Shown: positions 7,964 through 17,133 of the stretch, one piece after another
Layout: each line of letters opens with the position of its first letter
How positions within the stretch are numbered: position 1 is the first letter of the stretch
Assembly (NCBI GenBank): GCA_022797215.1
Contig: JAAWKD010000004.1
Location: forward strand, 5,191 to 69,190
Direction: 5' to 3'
DNA length: 64,000 nt
Origin: Clostridia bacterium
Lineage (GTDB): Bacteria > Bacillota > Clostridia > TANB77 > CAG-508
Translations under genes and position numbers: made by a program
The notes under the pieces: generated by a model
What the model was told of the DNA's origin: nothing
Database searches by the model: none
What the model saw: the letters and a program-made list of their open reading frames with translations, nothing else

Positions 7964-9071
7964 CTATTTTTCCACATTATTTTTCAAATAGCTATCAATA
8001 AATCCATCCAACTCACCATCCATAACTGCTTGCACATTTCCTACTTCATAGTTAGTCCTATGGTCTTTTACTAAAGTGTAAGGGCAAAATACATAAGAAC
8101 GAATTTGACTGCCCCATGCAATATCCATTTGAATTCCTTTTAATTCTTCGATTGTATCCTTTTGTTCTTTTTCCTTTAAGTTTAATAACTTAGACTTTAA
8201 CATTTTAAGTGCTGTATCTTTATTCTGGAATTGAGAACGCTCTGTTTGACAAGCTACAACAATTCCTGTTGGAATGTGTGTTAATCTTACTGCAGATGAA
8301 GTCTTATTAATATGTTGTCCTCCTGCTCCTGAAGCCCTATACACATCCATTTTAATATCATCTGGATTAATATCTAATTCAATATCATCTGTAATTTCGG
8401 GTAACACTTCTATAGAAGCAAAAGAAGTATGTCTTCTTCCTCCACTGTCAAAAGGGGAAATTCTAACCAAACGATGTACTCCCATTTCTCCTTTTAAATA
8501 GCCATAAGCATAATCTCCATTAACGGAAAATGTAACACTTTTAAGACCTGCCTCTTCACCTTCTAAATAGTCTAACTCTTTCAATTCATATCCATGTGCA
8601 TTTGACCATCTACTGTACATTCGATATAGCATTTCGGCCCAATCTTGAGCCTCTGTTCCCCCTGCTCCTGGATGAATAGTAATAATAGCGTTATTGTTAT
8701 CGTATTTTCCTGATAATAAGGTAGTAATTTCTAGTTTTTCAATCTCTTTTTCACTACTAGAAGTAGATCTAATAACCTCTTTAGCCATTTCTTCATCTGG
8801 CTCTATTTCTAATAATTCATTCATTTCCAAAATATTGTTTAATTCTATTTGAAGTTTTTTGAACCCATCTATTTTAGATTTTATCCCATTAATTTTTTTT
8901 AATACTTTTGAACTATTTTCAGTATCATTCCAAAAGTTGTTATTCATAGTTTGCTCTTCTAAAAGTTTTAATTCTTTCTCTTGATTTACTACATCAAAGT
9001 GAATCACCTATCTTTAGCAATCTATCTTTTAAATCTTGCAGTTTTCTAGTATTTTCTTCAAGTTCTATCAT
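7964..9071 (-). CDS. prfB: Peptide chain release factor 2, with programmed +1 frameshift (frame 0: 9071-8997; +1 frame: 8995-7964)
   Basis: ATG at 9071 gives 25 codons, MIELEENTRKLQDLKDRLLKIGDSL, ending CTT TGA T (8999-8993). An SD-like AGGTGAT lies 3 nt upstream. The +1 frame continues DVVNQEKE... and contains SPF and GGQHINK(T) motifs. Confidence 0.95.
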
Positions 9072-9155
9072 TACTATTTTCACCCCTTTTTTATACTAAA
9101 ATAGTCTATTTTTTCCTATCATATCACTAAAATCTACAACAATCAAGTTACTTTT

Positions 9156-9184
9156 TTGACATTTTATGTTAAGTATGCTATAAT
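9156..9184 (+). promoter_or_regulatory. Consensus sigma-A-type promoter of the 9239 ORF
   Basis: TTGACA (9156-9161), 17 nt spacer ending TGC, TATAAT (9179-9184). Confidence 0.6.
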
Positions 9185-9238
9185 AGTATTAATCTTAAGC
9201 GTAGAAATGCGTTTTATATTACTAGGGAGGCTTACACC

Positions 9239-9724
9239 ATGTCTATTTTCAAAATCAATTCTCGCATCCGTCAGGTCGGTACCTTTCTGAAGGTCAACCC
9301 CAAGAAGTTCCACATCATCTTTAAAAGCACCAGCGAAAGCTTTTTCCTCAATCCGGGGATCGCTCTGAACTGGACAGATGAGTTGGATATGCAGGAGCTG
9401 GACATTATCCTGCAGCTTCTGGACATTTCTGGCAATGGTTGGCAGGATGAACTACTCGGCAAAAAGGCTTGCTTGATTGTTGAGAGTAAGGAACATGACG
9501 ACGGCACGCTCGGCATTGAGATTAAGGCAATTGGACGCCCTGAGAAAAAGCAGAAGAAAACCAAGGACAAGAAAAACCAAGAAGCAAAAGACACCCAGAA
9601 GACAGACATCGATGTTGATGAAGAGGAAAACAGCCTCAACGGCATGTTCCTTGTTCTGAACAGCGGAGTCCAGCTACTTCCTTACGAGAAAGCCATGGAG
9701 CTTATCGAAAAGAAGAAGCATTAA
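9239..9724 (+). CDS. Hypothetical 161 aa protein encoded by a compositionally foreign (higher G+C, CTG/AAG-rich) gene
   Basis: AGGGAGG RBS 8 nt upstream, own promoter and terminator. About 43-47% G+C by hand count against very AT-rich flanks. Lys/Glu-rich linker (EKKQKKTKDKKNQEAKD). No family recognised. Confidence 0.65.
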   Translation: MSIFKINSRIRQVGTFLKVNPKKFHIIFKSTSESFFLNPGIALNWTDELDMQELDIILQLLDISGNGWQDELLGKKACLIVESKEHDDGTLGIEIKAIGRPEKKQKKTKDKKNQEAKDTQKTDIDVDEEENSLNGMFLVLNSGVQLLPYEKAMELIEKKKH

Positions 9725-9756
9725 TTACAACAGTATCACGCAACTTATCCTAGCAA

Positions 9757-9789
9757 GAAGAGGCGATTGGTAATCGCTTCTTCTTTTTT
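9757..9789 (+). terminator. Rho-independent terminator of the 9239 ORF
   Basis: GAAGAGGCGATT-GGT-AATCGCTTCTTC stem-loop followed by TTTTTT. Confidence 0.7.
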
Positions 9790-9795
9790 GAATTT

Positions 9796-10290
9796 TTAAG
9801 GATAATCATTTTGGAGTTTTTTTAGAGCATGTACCCCCTTTTCTCCTTCAGCTGCAAATATTGCTACATAACCTGAATTCATTTCTATTCCTAAACCGAA
9901 TTTATTTGGAAATTCCTTTTCTTCAGGTGGTGCCTTATCATATTTAATATCTTTTCGATACTTTTTCACGGCAAGAAAACCACATATCGCACTAATAGCA
10001 GACAGTAATAATCCCCATAAAGTTGTTTCTAATAAATAAATAGAAAAAATCCCTGTAATTATACAAGTAATTGTATATCTTTTTATCCAGCTATTTTTAT
10101 TATATTGTTCCATAGATTCATATTGTTTCTTTGCTTCCTCATATTTTAATTTTTCTATATCATGAGCTTTTTTCTCTTTATTTTGAAATCTAAAAATCCA
10201 AGTTCTTGATATATTCGAAATTTTTAAAATTTCGTTTCCATAACATATACTATTTTTATCAATCTCTATATTACTACTAAACTTTGCCAC
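9796..10290 (-). CDS. Hypothetical membrane protein (164 aa, two central TM helices)
   Basis: ORF with hydrophobic segments ITCIITGIFSIYLL and WGLLLSAISAICGFLAV; no family recognised. Confidence 0.45.
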   Translation of the reverse strand: MAKFSSNIEIDKNSICYGNEILKISNISRTWIFRFQNKEKKAHDIEKLKYEEAKKQYESMEQYNKNSWIKRYTITCIITGIFSIYLLETTLWGLLLSAISAICGFLAVKKYRKDIKYDKAPPEEKEFPNKFGLGIEMNSGYVAIFAAEGEKGVHALKKLQNDYP

Positions 10291-10324
10291 ATCTATTTCC
10301 TCTATTTTCTTTTATAACTATTCT

Positions 10325-10819
10325 TTATAGCTGATTTAATGTCAAGTATTTTTCTAATGCATCTACATTCATAATAAAGAACTTATTTCGATTATTTCTT
10401 AGTAATTCTGCTAACTCTTCAATTGCTATCCATCTAATATGCCTTGACTCATTAGTTTCTGTTACAGGTTCTCCTTCTGCTTCACAGATAAAATGATTAC
10501 ATATTATTGAATATGCATTTTCTAAGTTTTGTGTCACACAGAAGGGCATAAAATTTATTGTACTAGTTTCTTCACTATATTTCTTTTCCTCTTCTCCATA
10601 TATCTTAGTAACCTTTAGCCCAGTCTCTTCAAACACTTCTCTTCTTACTGTATCATAAGCATCTTCATATTCTCTTATTTTTCCTGCTGGTAATTCATAT
10701 AAGCCATTCGTTTCGTCTCCATCTTCTTTCCATCTTTCTTGAACAATAATATGCTTTTTACCATTTATCTCTCTTTCTACAATGGCTCCTATAGCAGGTT
10801 TTGCAAACTTTTCTTCCAT
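10325..10819 (-). CDS. NUDIX hydrolase
   Basis: Nudix box GKIREYEDAYDTVRREVFEETGL. Confidence 0.8.
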   Translation of the reverse strand: MEEKFAKPAIGAIVEREINGKKHIIVQERWKEDGDETNGLYELPAGKIREYEDAYDTVRREVFEETGLKVTKIYGEEEKKYSEETSTINFMPFCVTQNLENAYSIICNHFICEAEGEPVTETNESRHIRWIAIEELAELLRNNRNKFFIMNVDALEKYLTLNQL

Positions 10820-10864
10820 TTTATCTCCAACCTTATTAATTTATTTTAATGAGCTTAAAACCTA

Positions 10865-11002
10865 TCAATAACTTAAATTTTATAATAGCAAAATGCTGAC
10901 ATTGGCATTTTTACTTCTGCCAGTATTTACTTGCAATATGCTATTAAATGAACTTTCTTCTATTTTCCACAACAGTTCTTATACTTCTTTCCTAAACCAC
11001 AA
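10865..11002 (-). pseudogene. Displaced remnant copy of the secA 3' end and its downstream region
   Basis: Aligns by eye with 14241-14358, with one roughly 25 nt indel. It retains [13 protein letters not shown]-stop, against [15 protein letters not shown]-stop in the real secA. A stop lies just upstream, so it is not a gene. Confidence 0.65.
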
Positions 11003-11224
11003 GCTCTCAAAAGCAAAAAAATTTTGTCTTTTCTTCAATTTTATTAACCTTTGCTATCGCCACAATCTTGCTTAGGACAAAGAACATTTAAAGTTTATCA
11101 TCATTTATTAACATTTGTTATCTTTTATCAAAAGTTACTTAATAATGACAAATTGCCGACAATATTATCTTTTTATTTATAATATCTTATTTTTTCTTTT
11201 TACACAATAGTTTAAATATAAAAA

Positions 11225-11722
11225 TTAAATATTCTTTTTATCCAGATATTCTAAACACTTTTTTTCTAACTTTTTAAAATCACATATATTAAATCTTTTT
11301 CTACTTACTTCATTTAATCCTAATTTATATACTTGATTTGCTAACTTTTTAATCTTCTCTCTATTTATATTACAATAGTGTAATTCTTTTCTTAATAAAA
11401 CTTGATACTTTTCATCTTCTTTAGAAAAATCTTTTTGATTTAAGTATTCTATTGGACATGGAAACATAAAAGAAAATCTTAATGAAGATATCGGTTTTAG
11501 TTCTTTTGTCTTTTTATCTTTATCCATAATTAAAAATGTAGTATGAGCCTTTTTGTTATAAGAAGAAACTGGAGCAAAATAATTAAAATTATTTATTGTA
11601 AGTACTATTCCACAAAAGAATTTTTTATGTTTTTCATATTCAATATTAGGAATCTTATTATCACCATTTTCTTTTAAATATTTTATATATTCAATATCTA
11701 CTTCATAAAATTTTAATTTCAT
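11225..11722 (-). CDS. toxN: Type III toxin-antitoxin system ToxN/AbiQ-family endoribonuclease toxin
   Basis: 165 aa. MKLKFYEVDIEYIKYLKENGDNKIPN, FFCGIVLTINNFNYFAPVSS, LRFSFMFPC and NICDFKKLEKK align with my recollection of ToxN (KFYTISSKYIEYLKEFDDKVPN, FIGIVLEIQGHKYLAPLTS, LKFMIPI, CNFSLLEEK). Confidence 0.8.
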   Translation of the reverse strand: MKLKFYEVDIEYIKYLKENGDNKIPNIEYEKHKKFFCGIVLTINNFNYFAPVSSYNKKAHTTFLIMDKDKKTKELKPISSLRFSFMFPCPIEYLNQKDFSKEDEKYQVLLRKELHYCNINREKIKKLANQVYKLGLNEVSRKRFNICDFKKLEKKCLEYLDKKNI

Positions 11723-11794
11723 TGCAACATCTCCTTATAACATAAAAATGAGGATTAAAACCTAAATTTTAACCCCCATCAATTAAATTATGCT

Positions 11795-11925
11795 ATTTTG
11801 TTTTGAGTTAGCATTAACTCGAATATATTGTTCACTATATTTCATGAGGTGTGAAACCTCGAATATATCGTTCGCCATTTTTGATTGAGTTGCGAAACAC
11901 TCGAATTATAAATAGCTATTCTCTT
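11795..11925 (-). ncRNA. toxI: ToxI/antiQ-like tandem-repeat antitoxin RNA (about 3 units of 40-42 nt)
   Basis: The plus-strand motif CTCGAAT(A/T)TA recurs at 11818, 11858 and 11900, each preceded by (T)TGAG(G/T)T..GAAAC. A hairpin plus T-run (about 11740-11775, minus strand) separates the repeats from toxN, as in ToxIN loci. Confidence 0.55.
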
Positions 11926-12017
11926 TTAGTATATTTATTATACTATTTTTTTATTCATTATGTCAATAATTTCAAGAAAATTTATTATATTTTACAGATC
12001 CCATTTATTGGTGGGGA

Positions 12018-12647
12018 TTACCTTATTTCTATATTGTTTTCTTTTAAAAGTTCTATTACATCATCTGAATCATTAGAATTGACTCTTCTTCCATTTATTC
12101 CAATAAAATTTGCAACTTCTAAAGTTTTATTAGTATCGTCATCATCAATTAGTATACATTCTTCGGCATTTAGAGAATATCTTTCCAATAGTAATTCAAA
12201 TATTTTTGAATCCGGTTTTTTTATTCCTTCATATGCAGACACAATTGCTCCATCTACCATAGTGAAAAATTCATATTTTTTAGAAAAATATTCAAAAGTA
12301 GCTTTTGACATATTTGACAAAATATATATGTTATAACCTTTTTGTTTTAACCTCTTTCCTATTTCCATTGTTTCAAAATTTACATTACATTTAGTAAACC
12401 AATTTAGCATAAAATTTTCAACTTCATCATAGTTGGTTACATCTACAAGTTTTTCTTCTTTTATAGCATTCGCTATTTCTAAATTATTCATTTTTCCTAA
12501 GTCCATTAGTTTCCAAAATTCTGACTTGAAAATATATTCGTTAAAATTTATGGCATCTTTTTCTTCTTTAAAAAATTCTTTTACTATCTCTATATTGGGA
12601 TTTTGTACAATTACATTACCCAAATCGAAAATTATATTTTTTATCAT
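12018..12647 (-). CDS. HAD-superfamily hydrolase
   Basis: N-terminal IIFDLGNV (DxD-type motif I), GIKKPDSKIFELL and ILIDDDDTN motifs. Confidence 0.8.
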   Translation of the reverse strand: MIKNIIFDLGNVIVQNPNIEIVKEFFKEEKDAINFNEYIFKSEFWKLMDLGKMNNLEIANAIKEEKLVDVTNYDEVENFMLNWFTKCNVNFETMEIGKRLKQKGYNIYILSNMSKATFEYFSKKYEFFTMVDGAIVSAYEGIKKPDSKIFELLLERYSLNAEECILIDDDDTNKTLEVANFIGINGRRVNSNDSDDVIELLKENNIEIR

Positions 12648-12725
12648 ATTTACCTCGTATAATTAAAACATACAAAATATCGTAATTATACTCTCCTTTC
12701 TTTTTAAATTTTGTATAATATATTT

Positions 12726-12800
12726 GCACTGTGGATTTGTTCCTATTTTTCTACAGCTTTGACTGTTTTTGGAGGCTCAAACCACAGATTTTTTATTTTA
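12726..12800 (+). ncRNA. Candidate IS110 bridge/seek RNA in the left non-coding end
   Basis: TGTATAAT extended -10 at 12712-12719. Long-range stem CACTGTGGATTTG (12727-12739) pairs with CAAACCACAG (12778-12787), enclosing internal loops, then ATTTTTTATTTT. Confidence 0.35.
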
Positions 12801-12915
12801 ATTGTTGATTAGTTAGTTAACACTTTGATGTTTTATTATAATCGCGAGGATACAAGGTAGAAAGTTTTGTGGCAAACAAACAGTGCTAAAAATCTAACCA
12901 AGGAGGTGCATGTAT

Positions 12916-14076
12916 ATGATATATGTTGGAATAGATATATCTAAATACAAACACGATTGTTTCATCTGCAATGACTTAGGTGAAATTATCGTAGAAAACT
13001 TATCTTTTGAAAATACTAAAAAAGGATTTCAACAATTTCTTGATTTGCTGAAACCCTATGATAACTCTAATGTCCACATCGGTTTAGAAGCTACTGGACA
13101 TTATGGTTTGAATTTGAAATTGTTTTTAGAAAAAAACAATTATACTTTTATGGAATTTAATCCTCTTTTAGTTAAAGAATTTTCTAAATCTTTATCTTTA
13201 AGAAAGACTAAAACTGATAAAGTTGATGCAATGACCATTGCTCAAAAACTTTTATCTGTTCCATATAAGCCAAATTCAAAACTATTTTATCATAAATATT
13301 CAATGAAATCACTATCTAGATTAAGAGAAACTTTAGTTAAGCAAAGAAGTAAGTATATGGTTCAAATGACTAATGTTCTTGATATTATTTTTCCAGAATT
13401 TAAACCTTTCTTTAGCAATAGATTTTCAGCTACATCTTTGTATATCCTTGAAAAATATAAATCACCAGATAAAATTGCTAATATGAAAGACTTTGATACT
13501 TTAAAATCATTATCTCGTAGTCATTTTACTTATTCAAAATTCATTAAATTAAAAGATTTAGCTAAAAACACCATTGGAGAATCTAATGAAGTATTTGAAT
13601 TACAATTACAAATTCTTCTTAATCTGTATAAAGAAATTGATATTAAAATTGATTCAATAGATAATCAAATTTCTACAATTGTCAAGGAACTTAATCCACC
13701 AACGCTTTCTATTCCAGGAATTGGTGTAAATTCTTGTGCTACAATCATTTCTGAATTTGGAGACATTTCTAAATTTCCTAATCCTAGTAAAATGCTTTCT
13801 TTTGCTGGATTAGAACCAGGTATTATTGAGTCTGGTACTATGTCTTCAAAAGGAAAAATGGTTAAGCGTGGTTCTGGCTATTTATGCTATGCTTTAATGA
13901 ATGTAGCAATGGTTGTTATTGCAAATAACCATATATTCTATGACTTTTATTTTAAGAAACGTACTGAAGGTAAATGTCATAGAGTTGCTTTATCTCATGT
14001 GTGTAAAAAACTAATTAGAGTTATTTACATTCTTGAAACTAAAAATATATCTTTTGATCCATCTTTATTAAGATAA
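12916..14076 (+). CDS. IS110-family transposase
   Basis: N-terminal IYVGIDISKYKHD (DEDD/RuvC-like domain), C-terminal IPGIG...FGDISKF...FAGLEPG...SG... motif. The AAGGAGG RBS favours the ATG at 12916 over 12910. Confidence 0.85.
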   Translation: MIYVGIDISKYKHDCFICNDLGEIIVENLSFENTKKGFQQFLDLLKPYDNSNVHIGLEATGHYGLNLKLFLEKNNYTFMEFNPLLVKEFSKSLSLRKTKTDKVDAMTIAQKLLSVPYKPNSKLFYHKYSMKSLSRLRETLVKQRSKYMVQMTNVLDIIFPEFKPFFSNRFSATSLYILEKYKSPDKIANMKDFDTLKSLSRSHFTYSKFIKLKDLAKNTIGESNEVFELQLQILLNLYKEIDIKIDSIDNQISTIVKELNPPTLSIPGIGVNSCATIISEFGDISKFPNPSKMLSFAGLEPGIIESGTMSSKGKMVKRGSGYLCYALMNVAMVVIANNHIFYDFYFKKRTEGKCHRVALSHVCKKLIRVIYILETKNISFDPSLLR

Positions 14077-14314
14077 ATCAATTTATCTTAAATCTTTAAA
14101 AAAATTAATTTTTAAAGATTTATTTAGCATGCAAATTTTTTAATAAAAAACTTTTTTAATTTTTTTCGGAAATAACTATTGACTTTTAATAGTTAGCCTC
14201 TAATTTTGTCGATTTATTTGTATACTCTATCTAAAAACTGTCAACAACTTAAAATTTAGGATGACAAAATGCTGACATTTGCCTTTTTTACATCTCTGCA
14301 ACCGCTGTAATAGG

Positions 14315-17056
14315 CTATTTTCCGCAACAATTCTTATACTTCTTTCCTGAACCACAAGGACAAGCGTCATTTCTTCCTACATTTGGTGCAGTATTAACAA
14401 CTGTCATATTTCCACCTGATTTTCTAGGAGCTTGTGTATCTAAATCTCTTAATGTATCTTCAAATCCTTCTCCTGTAATTTTGACTGAAGTTGTTCTTTG
14501 TAAGTTCTCTTCTCTTTTTCTAGCATTCATCAAGAATTTGATAACATCTGTCTGAATATCTAAATTCATTTGGTCAAACATGTCTGCCCCTTCCATTCTG
14601 TATTGAACAACAGGGTCTTTTTGACCATAAGCACGAAGACCAATACCATTTTTCAGTTCGTCCATTGCCTCAATATGGTCCATCCATCTATCATCAACAA
14701 TTTTTAACATAATAACTCTTTCAAGTTCTCTCATGTTATCGCTACCTATTTCTTGTTCTTTTTGCTCATAAATTTGATGTGCTTTTTCTTTTAGTTCTTG
14801 AGTTACTTCATTTAATACAATCTTATCTTTTTTAGTAGACTCTAATTCTGTAATACCAAAGTTAATAGCTATTTCTTGCATAAATGCATCCAAATTAAAA
14901 TCGGCTACTTCTGATAAGTATTCCATAGCGGTATCTTCCACTAAATTATCTATCATATTTAATACATTAGTCTTTAAATCTTCTCCATCAAGAACTCTTC
15001 TTCTTTGATCATAAATAGTTCCTCTTTGAACATTCATAACATCATCATATTGTAGAACATTTTTACGAATACTAAAGTTTTGTCCTTCTACCTTCTTTTG
15101 AGCAGTTTCTACTGCATTAGAAAGTAATTTAGATTCTAGTGGCATATCCTCGTCTGCACCCAATGTGTTATATACTCTAGTAATCGCATCTCCACCAAAT
15201 ATTTTCATTAAATCATCATCTAATGCAATATAAAACCTTGACTCTCCTGGATCTCCTTGACGTCCACTACGTCCACGAAGCTGATTATCAATTCTTCTAG
15301 ATTCATGTCTTTCTGTACCAATAATCTTTAGTCCACCTGCTGCAAGTACCTTTTCTTTTTCTTCTTTAATTTCTTGATTAAATTTCTCTTCTAGCTCTTT
15401 GAATTTCTTTCTTGCCTCTAAAATATTTTGATCTTGTGTTTCATTAAAAGCTGTTGCTTGTTCTAGTTGTTCTTCTGTATATCTTTGTCTTCTCATTTCT
15501 TGTTTTGCTAGATATTCACTATTACCACCAAGCATAATATCAGTACCACGACCTGCCATGTTTGTTGCAATTGTAACAGCTCCATATTTACCTGCTTGTG
15601 CAATGATTTCAGCTTCTTTTTCATGGAATTTAGCGTTTAATACTTCATGTTTAATTCCTTCTTTTTTTAGCAAGTTACTCAATTTTTCAGATTTTTCAAT
15701 AGAAACTGTACCAACTAGAACTGGTTGTCCTTTTTCATGACTTTCTTTAATATCTTGAATCACTGCTCTAAATTTAGCATCTTCATTTTTATAAATGATA
15801 TCATGATGGTCATCACGAATCATTGGCTTATTGGTTGGAATTTCAATAACATCTAAATGATAGATTTCTTCAAATTCCTCTTCTTCTGTCATCGCAGTAC
15901 CAGTCATACCAGATAACTTATCATACATTCTAAAGTAGTTTTGGAAGGTAATGGTTGCAAGTGTTTTAGATTCATCTGCAATTTTAACATGTTCTTTTGC
16001 TTCAATTGCTTGATGTAGTCCATTATTATATCTTCTTCCATACATGATACGTCCTGTAAATTCATCTACAATTAATACTTCTCCATCTTTTACGATATAA
16101 TCAATATCTTTTTTCATAATACCATGTGCTCTTAAAGCTTGGTTAACGTTATGCACTAATTCAGAATTTTCAATATCATTGAAGTTTTCTAAATTAAATT
16201 CTCTTTCTGCTTTTTCAATACCCTTTTGTGTCAAAGAAGCTGATTTTGCCTTCAAATCAACAATGTAGTCATAGTTTTCATTGTCTTCTGCTTGTTCTTC
16301 ATCTTTTAAATCTTCTTCTACAATAACTTTTGGTGTTAGTCTTCTAACAAAGTTATCAGCCTTTTTATATAAATCTGATGACTGTGTTCCACGTCCAGAA
16401 ATAATAAGTGGTGTACGAGCCTCGTCTACTAAAATACTATCAATTTCGTCAACGATAGCATAATTTAATTCTCTTTGAACTAATTGCTCTTTGTAAATAA
16501 CCATATTATCTCTTAAATAGTCAAAACCAAATTCGTTGTTAGTACCATAAGTAACATCTGCATGGTATGCATCTCTTTTAGCCTCTGGTTCCATTCCTGC
16601 AACAACTAGTCCTACTGTTAATCCTAAAAATTTATATACTTTTCCCATCCATTCACTATCTCTTTTAGCTAGATAGTCATTAACTGTAATTACATGCACA
16701 CCTTTTCCTGTTAGAGCATTCAAATACACAGGTAATGTAGCAACTAATGTTTTACCTTCACCTGTTTTCATTTCTGCAATTCTTCCTTGATGAAGAATAA
16801 TACCACCAATTAATTGGACATCAAAGTGTCTCATTCCTAATACTCTTTTTGATGCCTCTCTAACAGTTGCAAATGCTTCTGGTAAAATGTCATCTAAAGT
16901 TTTACCTTCTTCTAATTGCTTTTTAAATTCTACTGTTTTGCCACATAATTGTTCATCTGTTAATTTTTGAAATTCTTCTTCTAAACTGTTAATCTTCTCT
17001 ACAATTGGCTTTACTCTCTTTACTTCCTTTTCACTGTATGTTTTAAATAATCCCAT
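14315..17056 (-). CDS. secA: Preprotein translocase ATPase SecA
   Basis: [14 protein letters not shown] Walker [30 protein letters not shown]-terminal zinc tail [15 protein letters not shown]. Confidence 0.97.
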
Positions 17057-17133
17057 TGCTTTCATCCTTCCTAACTTTAATCATAATATTCTTTGTTACT
17101 ATATCACTTTTGCTAAAAAATCGCAAGGAAAAT

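Follow-up and report, generated by a model that had tools for sequence, protein, structure and literature searches.

A predicted type III toxin-antitoxin cassette

The window analyzed here, a 64-kb stretch of chromosomal DNA (1-64000) from the genome of an uncultured mouse-gut Clostridia bacterium, contains a compact cassette of approximately 740 bases in which a predicted toxin gene of the ToxN family (toxN) lies downstream of three repeat units (toxI) whose RNA is predicted to fold into pseudoknots. The locus as a whole lies on the minus strand and runs from a -35 box at 11966 down to the end of toxN at 11225. Promoter, repeats, terminator, ribosome-binding site (RBS) and toxin follow one another on one strand (Table 1), which satisfies the rules by which Blower et al. 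recognized type III loci. The locus is a new and well-conserved member of the toxIN type III toxin-antitoxin/abortive-infection systems, forming a clade within them, and is not a new kind of system.

Table 1. Features of the predicted toxIN cassette in the window (S1 and S2 are the two candidate helices of each repeat unit).
Feature	Position	Strand	Length	Description
Sigma-70-type promoter of the toxI-toxN operon (predicted)	11937..11966	-		TTGACA-18 nt-TATAAT; 12/12 consensus match
Leader	11907..11936	-	30 nt	AGAAUAGCUAUUUAUA in its 3' part is similar to a unit's 3' tail (partial '0.4' repeat)
toxI-like unit 1	11865..11906	-	42 nt	AUUC-GAGU-GU-UUCGC-A-ACUC-AAUCAAAAAUG-GCGAA-CGAUAU
toxI-like unit 2	11825..11864	-	40 nt	S1 GAGG/CCUC, S2 UUCAC/GUGAA, both compensatory relative to unit 1
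toxI-like unit 3	11783..11824 (11783 approximate)	-	42 nt	S1 GAGU/ACUC as in unit 1; S2 AUGCUA/UAGCAU, entirely different
Intrinsic terminator between toxI and toxN (predicted)	11737..11780 (hairpin 11780-11747 plus T-run)	-		15-pair stem, 4-nt loop, UUUUUAU
Ribosome-binding site	11731..11736	-		AAGGAG, 8 nt before the toxN ATG, read from the sequence
toxN	11225..11722	-	165 aa	ATG start; predicted ToxN/AbiQ-family endoribonuclease toxin; profile, PDB and fold matches

Profile searches, sequence searches and structure prediction agreed on the family of the toxin. The toxN product matched Pfam PF13958 (ToxN_toxin) over the entire profile (positions 1-159 of 159) with an E-value of 1.1e-32 and 113.8 bits, where the cutoff is 25; in PADLOC it matched AbiQ (1.3e-31). 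These were the only significant Pfam and PADLOC matches, with no model of the related toxins CptN and TenpN being matched, and an NCBIfam scan matched no model to toxN. A phmmer search of the PDB returned 4ATO (1.3e-13), 7D8O, 2XD0 and 4GLK as its sole significant matches, and the window toxin is 30-33% identical to these solved ToxN/AbiQ proteins. When the AlphaFold2 (AF2) model of the toxin, with a mean predicted local distance difference test (pLDDT) of 80.7 and a predicted template modeling score (pTM) of 0.78, was compared with known structures using Foldseek, the four matches at E<=0.001 were again 4ATO, 2XD0, 7D8O and 4GLK (TM 0.67-0.74), and the next match after these was MazF, at an E-value of 1.5. 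By these matches the model has the fold of ToxN, in which helices, one of them long and kinked, surround a twisted antiparallel beta-sheet core.

The active site can be followed in a joint alignment of the clade with the characterized toxins ToxN_Pa, ToxN_Bt and AbiQ, using the active-site residues given for ToxN_Pa and AbiQ (PMC5086642, PMC8860590). Ser54 of the window toxin is invariant in this alignment and corresponds to Ser53 of ToxN_Pa and Ser51 of AbiQ. In ToxN_Pa, the active-site pair opposite Ser53-Ser54 is Thr52-Ser53 and the residue opposite Lys34 is Lys33, and the catalytic Ser/Thr-Ser motif that follows the beta-strand ...Y(F/L)(A/V/I)P(L/V)- is present in the window toxin.

A single promoter upstream of the repeats is predicted to drive both the RNA and the toxin, with transcription expected to start near 11930. 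Nearly all related loci retain its TTGACA and TATAAT boxes, with a spacer of 17-18 nt. No promoter-like site was matched between the terminator and the toxN ATG, where there is also no room for one, and this absence of a second promoter for toxN alone fits control by read-through. The terminator was the sole terminator-like site in the 1.3 kb scanned, against 0.1 expected, and its hairpin had a folding free energy of -15.2 kcal/mol (z -5.0). In related loci the same position is taken by a hairpin of -13 to -20 kcal/mol, with sequence changes that preserve the stem; this comparison covers the loci in which our script chose the correct site, which were all but one (L014). The leader supplies the ...UAAUUCGAG junction ahead of unit 1 and keeps the form TATACTAA..AGAATAGCTATTYA(A)TA across 33 loci, while the logo of the junction between leader and unit 1 reads TAATTCGAG at >=85-100%.

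Repeat units and the predicted antitoxin RNA

Tandem Repeats Finder reported a repeat at 11817-11906 with a period of 40, 2.2 copies, 80% matches and a score of 117, and the core CTCGAAT occurs on the plus strand at 11818, 11858 and 11900. The consensus of the units reads AUUC-GAGU-G(U)-UUCGC-A-ACUC-(8-12 nt, A-rich)-GCGAA-CNAUAU. Each unit holds two candidate helices, S1, in which GAGY pairs with RCUC, and S2, in which the hairpin loop UUCGC pairs with a downstream GCGAA; in unit 1 these are 11902-11899 with 11890-11887 and 11896-11892 with 11875-11871, respectively. To judge from their sequences, S1 and S2 could together make up an H-type pseudoknot in which loops 1 and 2 are short and loop 3 is long and A-rich, with single-stranded tails on either side. 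The loops, of 1-2 nt, then 1 nt, then 8-12 A-rich nt, fit the 'Group II' ToxI template of Blower et al. 2012 (PMC3401426; loop 1b-2b >7 nt). The tail of unit 3, AAUUUAAUU, leads into the terminator and not into another unit.

We examined covariation in a MAFFT alignment of 83 distinct units, in which 90.7% of helix cells were paired overall (S1 99.4%, S2 83.9%), compared with only 27-61% in controls with a slid register. Doubly changed cells numbered 49, against 13.5+-3 in column shuffles (0/500), and included a change from G-C to A-U at alignment columns 14/36 in 13 distinct units; unit 2 of locus L034 carries another compensated pair, with AAGU/ACUU as its S1. The covariation count is conservative, because MAFFT shifted the divergent third units by one column. 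When pairing was scored with a register-free script, every unit had a Watson-Crick helix of 4-6 bp between the loop and the unit's own downstream segment. At least seven distinct S2 helices occur (UUCGC/GCGAA, UUCAC/GUGAA, AUGCUA/UAGCAU, AGGUUA/UAACCU, ACGCUU/ARGCGU, AGAUUA/UAGUCU and UUCGCU/AGCGAA), and the third unit of relatives has AGGUUA/UAACCU, ACGCUU/ARGCGU or AGAUUA/UAGUCU, always complementary to its own downstream segment. The array in the window contains three different S2 helices, one per unit, and among three-unit arrays approximately 12/30 have three different S2 helices and 11/30 have two (manual tally).

Pairing within the unit was also compared with pairing to the preceding unit. 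The loop formed a mean of 5.2 Watson-Crick bp with its own downstream segment and 3.9 with that of the preceding unit, and no reassortment shuffle (0/300) reached the observed mean. Own-segment pairing was better in 43 cases, equal in 15 and worse in 4. On this basis we rejected a circularly permuted unit, in which the A-rich tract would be cut and S2 would form with the segment of the preceding unit. Pseudoknot geometry also disfavors such a unit, as a 1-nt loop would have to cross a 5-bp stem.

The 10-nt linker that connects S2 of one unit to S1 of the next reads CNAUAUAUUC, and 9/10 of its positions are >=94% conserved, which is above the conservation of S2 itself. The 3' half of the linker, UA(U)AUUC, recurs at the junction between leader and unit 1. 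Solved complexes show ToxN recognizing base-specifically, and cleaving, the single-stranded overhangs that lie between one pseudoknot and the next (PMC8860590). The conservation of the linker is what would be expected of overhangs read in this way, and by analogy the linker is the most likely site at which ToxN cuts.

Much of this organization had been anticipated by the original prediction, which was made from the DNA letters and described a 165-aa open reading frame (ORF) resembling ToxN/AbiQ along its length, about three tandem units of 40-42 nt upstream on the same strand, and a hairpin with a T-run ahead of the toxin RBS. The full-length PF13958 match, the units of 42, 40 and 42 nt with their cores at the predicted positions, and the 15-pair terminator followed by AAGGAG agree with that description. 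A ToxIN-type layout is likewise borne out, as ToxN homology and fold, repeats, terminator, upstream promoter and pseudoknot potential were all found. The limits proposed for the locus, 11225-11925, hold at the toxN end; at the other end, the promoter, which had gone unmentioned, adds approximately 40 nt. The suggestion that the locus, by the length and sequence of its repeats, may be a distinct subfamily did not stand as regards length. Published toxIN loci have repeats of 31-62 nt (mean 38.1) in 1.9-5.6 copies (mean 2.8) and a mean toxin length of 168 aa (Blower et al. 2012, Table 2, PMC3401426), and because the 40-42 nt and approximately three copies of the window, like the size of its toxin, lie within the published ranges, repeat length and copy number are not marks of a subfamily. 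The RNA is divergent and the toxin only 30-33% identical to the solved proteins, but divergence of this degree is usual within the toxIN family.

Conservation and decay in related genomes

A protein search returned 241 relatives of the window toxin, of which the best 120 are 80-94% identical. In a locus survey that scanned one genome per species, 36 loci were found (designated L with a number) and 33 were parsed. All 36 are in metagenome-assembled genomes of uncultured gut Clostridia from mouse, human, rabbit and deer, and the window sequence is present complete in mouse gut metagenome DNA runs. Promoter, leader, repeats, terminator and toxN were in register in 33/33 parsed loci, and 30/33 arrays have exactly three units, of 38-43 nt. 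That the full set, with its three units, recurs in this order and register in 30+ independent genomes is beyond chance.

Comparison of the window toxN with 20 relatives gave a median ratio of nonsynonymous to synonymous substitution rates (dN/dS) of 0.09 (range 0.07-0.12), indicating strong purifying selection. Mean identity to relatives reached 87% in the promoter, 85% in the leader, 83% across the units and 80% in the terminator, compared with 68.5% at third codon positions and 65% in the RBS spacer; conservation of the non-coding part is thus higher than that of synonymous-like sites. Nucleotide homology between most species does not extend beyond approximately 11225-11995, from the -35 box to the toxN stop codon. 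The cassette is flanked by secA and prfB in the window and in the four relatives closest to it, by a NUDIX gene and yebC-spoIIIA in another species, and by enolase and radical-SAM/ftsZ in a third. We considered conserved synteny and rejected it, as only the four closest loci have secA beside the cassette. Because homology stops at the ends of the cassette and the flanking genes differ between species, the cassette is a self-contained unit that, in the contexts examined, lies among housekeeping genes and in neither a prophage nor a defense island.

Six of the 36 loci (L028-L030 and L033-L035) are decayed, with toxN truncated or frameshifted and the promoter and toxI repeats retained. A deletion of approximately 160 bp, shared by L028-L030 in three species, removes the 3' half of the terminator, the RBS and the first ~45 toxN codons. 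L034 keeps only the ~55 C-terminal codons of toxN, while L033 and L035 are internally damaged. That toxN decayed first and toxI was kept is the order of decay expected of a toxin-antitoxin pair, and the decayed loci could serve as orphan antitoxins.

Four of the related loci (L011, L012, L013 and L031) have an extra ~75-105 nt inserted between the toxI terminator and the toxN RBS. In L012 and L031 the insert holds a structured-looking, GC-richer element (…GGTTAAGTTACCTTGGGCTGTGCGGTTTGCAAAGCAAACC…GTGGCGAAGCCAC…), which is absent from the window and had no Rfam match at the gathering score.

Genomic surroundings in the window

The interval 9007-14315, between prfB (7964-9007, minus strand) and secA (14315-17065, minus strand), looks like a small variable island. 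It contains an IS110-family transposase (12910-14076, plus strand), a HAD hydrolase, the toxIN cassette, a NUDIX gene and two ORFs of unknown function, while in the relative L031 the order is simply secA, toxIN, prfB and a pyrH-like kinase. One of the two ORFs (9239-9724, plus strand; 161 aa) lies opposite to its neighbors, has its own GGGAGG RBS and is located in a patch of 37-40% GC in DNA of 21-33% GC. It had no Pfam, NCBIfam, PHROG or PADLOC match, and is probably a horizontally acquired gene. The other (9796-10290, minus strand; 164 aa) has a hydrophobic, probably membrane-spanning middle segment; searches returned no credible family for it, and the lone match, to a bunyavirus NSm model, was below threshold and due to chance.

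The NUDIX gene (10325-10819, minus strand) is located just downstream of toxN and matched the PADLOC candidate defense model PDC-S07 (4.9e-11). A NUDIX gene also adjoins the cassette in another species (L037-L040). We rejected a linkage between NUDIX genes and the cassette, and take the adjacency as coincidence, because the two NUDIX proteins are unrelated beyond their fold (E 0.16). A further 161-aa ORF on the plus strand (11851-12336) overlaps the antitoxin region and had been dismissed as spurious by the original prediction. We came to the same view, because this ORF had no Pfam or NCBIfam match and is antisense to the HAD-hydrolase gene, which has clear Pfam matches.

Proposed mechanism and alternative explanations

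These observations lead us to read the locus as a toxIN-family type III toxin-antitoxin cassette that is complete and probably functional, operating as a ToxIN-type module in the way set out below, and we put the probability of this reading at roughly 0.88. The strong constitutive promoter would produce a transcript of the leader and three repeats of ~41 nt. Most transcripts would stop at the terminator, leaving the repeat RNA in excess, and a minority would read through, allowing translation of ToxN as a sequence-specific endoribonuclease, so that partial read-through would determine how much antitoxin RNA is made relative to toxin mRNA. ToxN would then cut the repeat precursor in the conserved single-stranded linker CNAUAUAUUC, and each unit, once released, would adopt the form of an H-type pseudoknot with S1 (GAGY/RCUC), an S2 of 5-6 bp and a long A-rich loop crossing S1. 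The single-stranded tails of the units would bind ToxN and block its active sites in a closed, inactive RNA-protein ring. If the supply of repeat RNA dropped, for example on phage-induced shut-off or when the locus is lost, this RNA, being labile, would decay and ToxN would be freed to degrade cellular and phage RNAs, resulting in growth arrest and thereby in abortive infection and/or addiction. The cassette may function in phage defense, in addiction, or in both.

Several points weigh against this interpretation. Our analysis bears directly on the toxin family, its fold and catalytic serine, the layout, the conservation, the purifying selection and the pseudoknot covariation, while self-processing of the transcript, neutralization and phage defense would follow by analogy with ToxIN_Pa, ToxIN_Bt, ToxIN_Ec and AbiQ, as would the assembly of the ring and its trigger. 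Nested-structure folding of single units was no better than that of shuffles (z 0.35 to -2.2), with S1 or S2 found alternately, and because these energies are not significant it is the covariation that argues for the pseudoknot. An Rfam scan at gathering score found no match in the three loci scanned or anywhere in the window, tRNA families included, and a permissive Rfam 15 scan of 11000-12300 (E<=10) returned only two chance matches to eukaryotic families. The linker CNAUAUAUUC has no conserved A-run, unlike the cut sites of the three characterized ToxN enzymes, which are AA|AU, GAA|AU and AAA|AA, each cut between two A's (PMC8860590). On the protein side, 1/5 AF2 models was confident, and its predicted active-site loops (residues 32-34 and 55-60) are low-confidence parts with pLDDT <50; the alignment used for structure prediction was shallow, as it drew on the best 120 of 241 relatives. 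Two further active-site equivalences are ambiguous, as Tyr29 of the window toxin is two positions off Tyr29 of ToxN_Pa across an alignment gap, and Lys55 of ToxN_Pa aligns with Asn56, with Lys57-Lys58 adjacent. Assemblies (Logan contigs) from sequencing runs listed as RNA hold toxI-toxN sequence that is 96-97% identical (X30 is labeled metatranscriptomic; X26 and X27 were guessed to be RNA), which is compatible with expression and uninformative on processing: these contigs are from close relatives, extend upstream of the promoter, carry no information on transcript starts or ends, and could reflect DNA carry-over. Scans of IMG/VR with the exact repeat-core pattern and with protein-based searches found no phage-borne copy and no phage decoy repeat.

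The mechanism might operate as proposed and yet serve addiction, the stabilization of a chromosomal segment, or the selfish persistence of the cassette itself, and not phage defense. We consider this rather unlikely. In its favor, in every context examined (secA/prfB, NUDIX/yebC-spoIIIA and enolase/radical-SAM-ftsZ) the cassette stands alone among housekeeping genes with no recognizable defense island, its location differs between species, and the 6/36 loci with decayed toxN keep toxI and the promoter, as expected if prior loss of the antitoxin were lethal; plasmid stabilization is also known for some type III systems (PMC5086642). However, abortive infection has been obtained from all experimentally studied ToxN/AbiQ systems (PMC3401426, PMC5086642), the strong purifying selection across species fits a benefit to the host equally well, and addiction and phage defense are not mutually exclusive.

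The decayed copies in related genomes (L028-L030, L033-L035) raise the further question of whether the window locus is itself an inactive relic, with a non-toxic toxN or with repeats that no longer act as antitoxin. This seems to us very improbable, given that in the window toxN is full length and retains the residues invariant in the family, that its 12/12 promoter, terminator and RBS are intact, that dN/dS is 0.07-0.12 against 20 relatives, and that both helices are kept in all three units. It is harder still to believe that the repeats act in cis on the translation or transcription of toxN, as a 5' leader or attenuator, and not in trans as an antitoxin, with the toxin neutralized by some other factor. 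The repeats and terminator do lie within the 5' untranslated region of toxN, and the terminator clearly could attenuate expression. Yet homology ends at the promoter and the stop codon and no other ORF is conserved with the cassette; tandem pseudoknots with conserved single-stranded linkers are the architecture that binds ToxN in three solved complexes (PMC5086642, PMC8860590); and the decayed loci retain promoter and repeats in the absence of a translatable toxN, which a purely cis-acting leader would hardly explain.

Within the toxIN reading, we tentatively raise the possibility, which the odds do not favor, that the clade is a ToxIN variant in which the alternating A/U linker CNAUAUAUUC is cut in place of an A-run, and in which the units are deliberately non-identical, with 'orthogonal' S2 helices. 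The S2 sets within arrays combine CGC, CAC and AUGCUA/AGGUUA/ACGCUU. It is conceivable that unlike S2 helices, with tails and S1 held constant, could avert mis-pairing between neighboring repeats during co-transcriptional folding, or the loss of repeats by recombination. If the linker is the cut site, the toxin would extend the known cleavage specificities of ToxN with one that is new for the family, and such an enzyme would be potentially useful as a sequence-specific RNase and for the study of co-evolution between toxin and RNA specificity. More generally, the clade provides a natural covariation data set for type III antitoxin RNA: S2 is free to change as long as it remains paired, and S1, linker and tails are fixed, a pattern that predicts the toxin-contacting parts of the RNA. 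These loci add a well-supported and abundant ToxIN clade from uncultured low-GC gut Clostridia, and in other respects the system conforms to textbook ToxIN, so that the practical gain is only the correct annotation of a non-coding antitoxin and of the spurious plus-strand ORF that lies over it. A literature search on this Clostridia ToxIN clade found nothing relevant.

Comparison with known systems

Among the closest known systems, ToxIN_Bt from plasmid pAW63 of Bacillus thuringiensis (4ATO) provided both the best sequence match (1.3e-13) and the best fold match (TM 0.74) of the window toxin. It is likewise a type III system of a Firmicute, with the order promoter, repeats, terminator and toxN and an H-type pseudoknot antitoxin. 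The repeats of ToxI_Bt are 34 nt long, compared with 40-42 nt in the window, and the toxins are only 33% identical. ToxN_Bt cuts AAA|AA in an A-rich overhang, whereas the linker of the window locus is CNAUAUAUUC and its A-rich tract would be an internal loop of the pseudoknot.

AbiQ/antiQ of Lactococcus lactis (4GLK) resembles the window locus in the PADLOC assignment of the toxin to AbiQ, in a similar repeat count (~2.8) and in the window motif SSY(N/K)K, which recalls the LSYKK of AbiQ, the site of its catalytic Ser51. The repeats of antiQ are 35 nt long. AbiQ differs from the window toxin in being plasmid-borne and in sequence, with an identity of 31%.

ToxIN_Pa, from plasmid pECA1039 of Pectobacterium atrosepticum (2XD0/2XDB/2XDD), and ToxIN_Ec (7D8O) are the archetypes of the family. 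Their toxin folds are like that of the window toxin (TM 0.67-0.70), Lys33 and Thr52-Ser53 of ToxN_Pa have their counterparts in Lys34 and Ser53-Ser54, and the architecture is the same, with a terminator that governs the ratio of RNA to toxin (PMC3401426). ToxIN_Pa has 5.5 near-identical repeats of 36 nt on a proteobacterial plasmid, whereas the window has 3 (+0.4) repeats of 40-42 nt on a chromosome. The window repeats are also unlike one another in S2 within the array, the toxin identity is 30%, and the known cuts are AA|AU and GAA|AU (PMC8860590).

CptIN of Eubacterium rectale and TenpIN, which make up the remaining two families of type III systems, share with the window locus the logic of a repeat RNA paired with an endoribonuclease, and CptIN has repeats of 40-48 nt and a long A-rich loop (PMC3401426, PMC5086642). 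CptIN also occurs in gut Clostridia. However, the window toxin matches only ToxN/AbiQ profiles, and the loop lengths of its repeats fit the ToxI template and not the single-base L1 and A-minor twist of CptI (PMC5086642), although the gap in L1 length is small.

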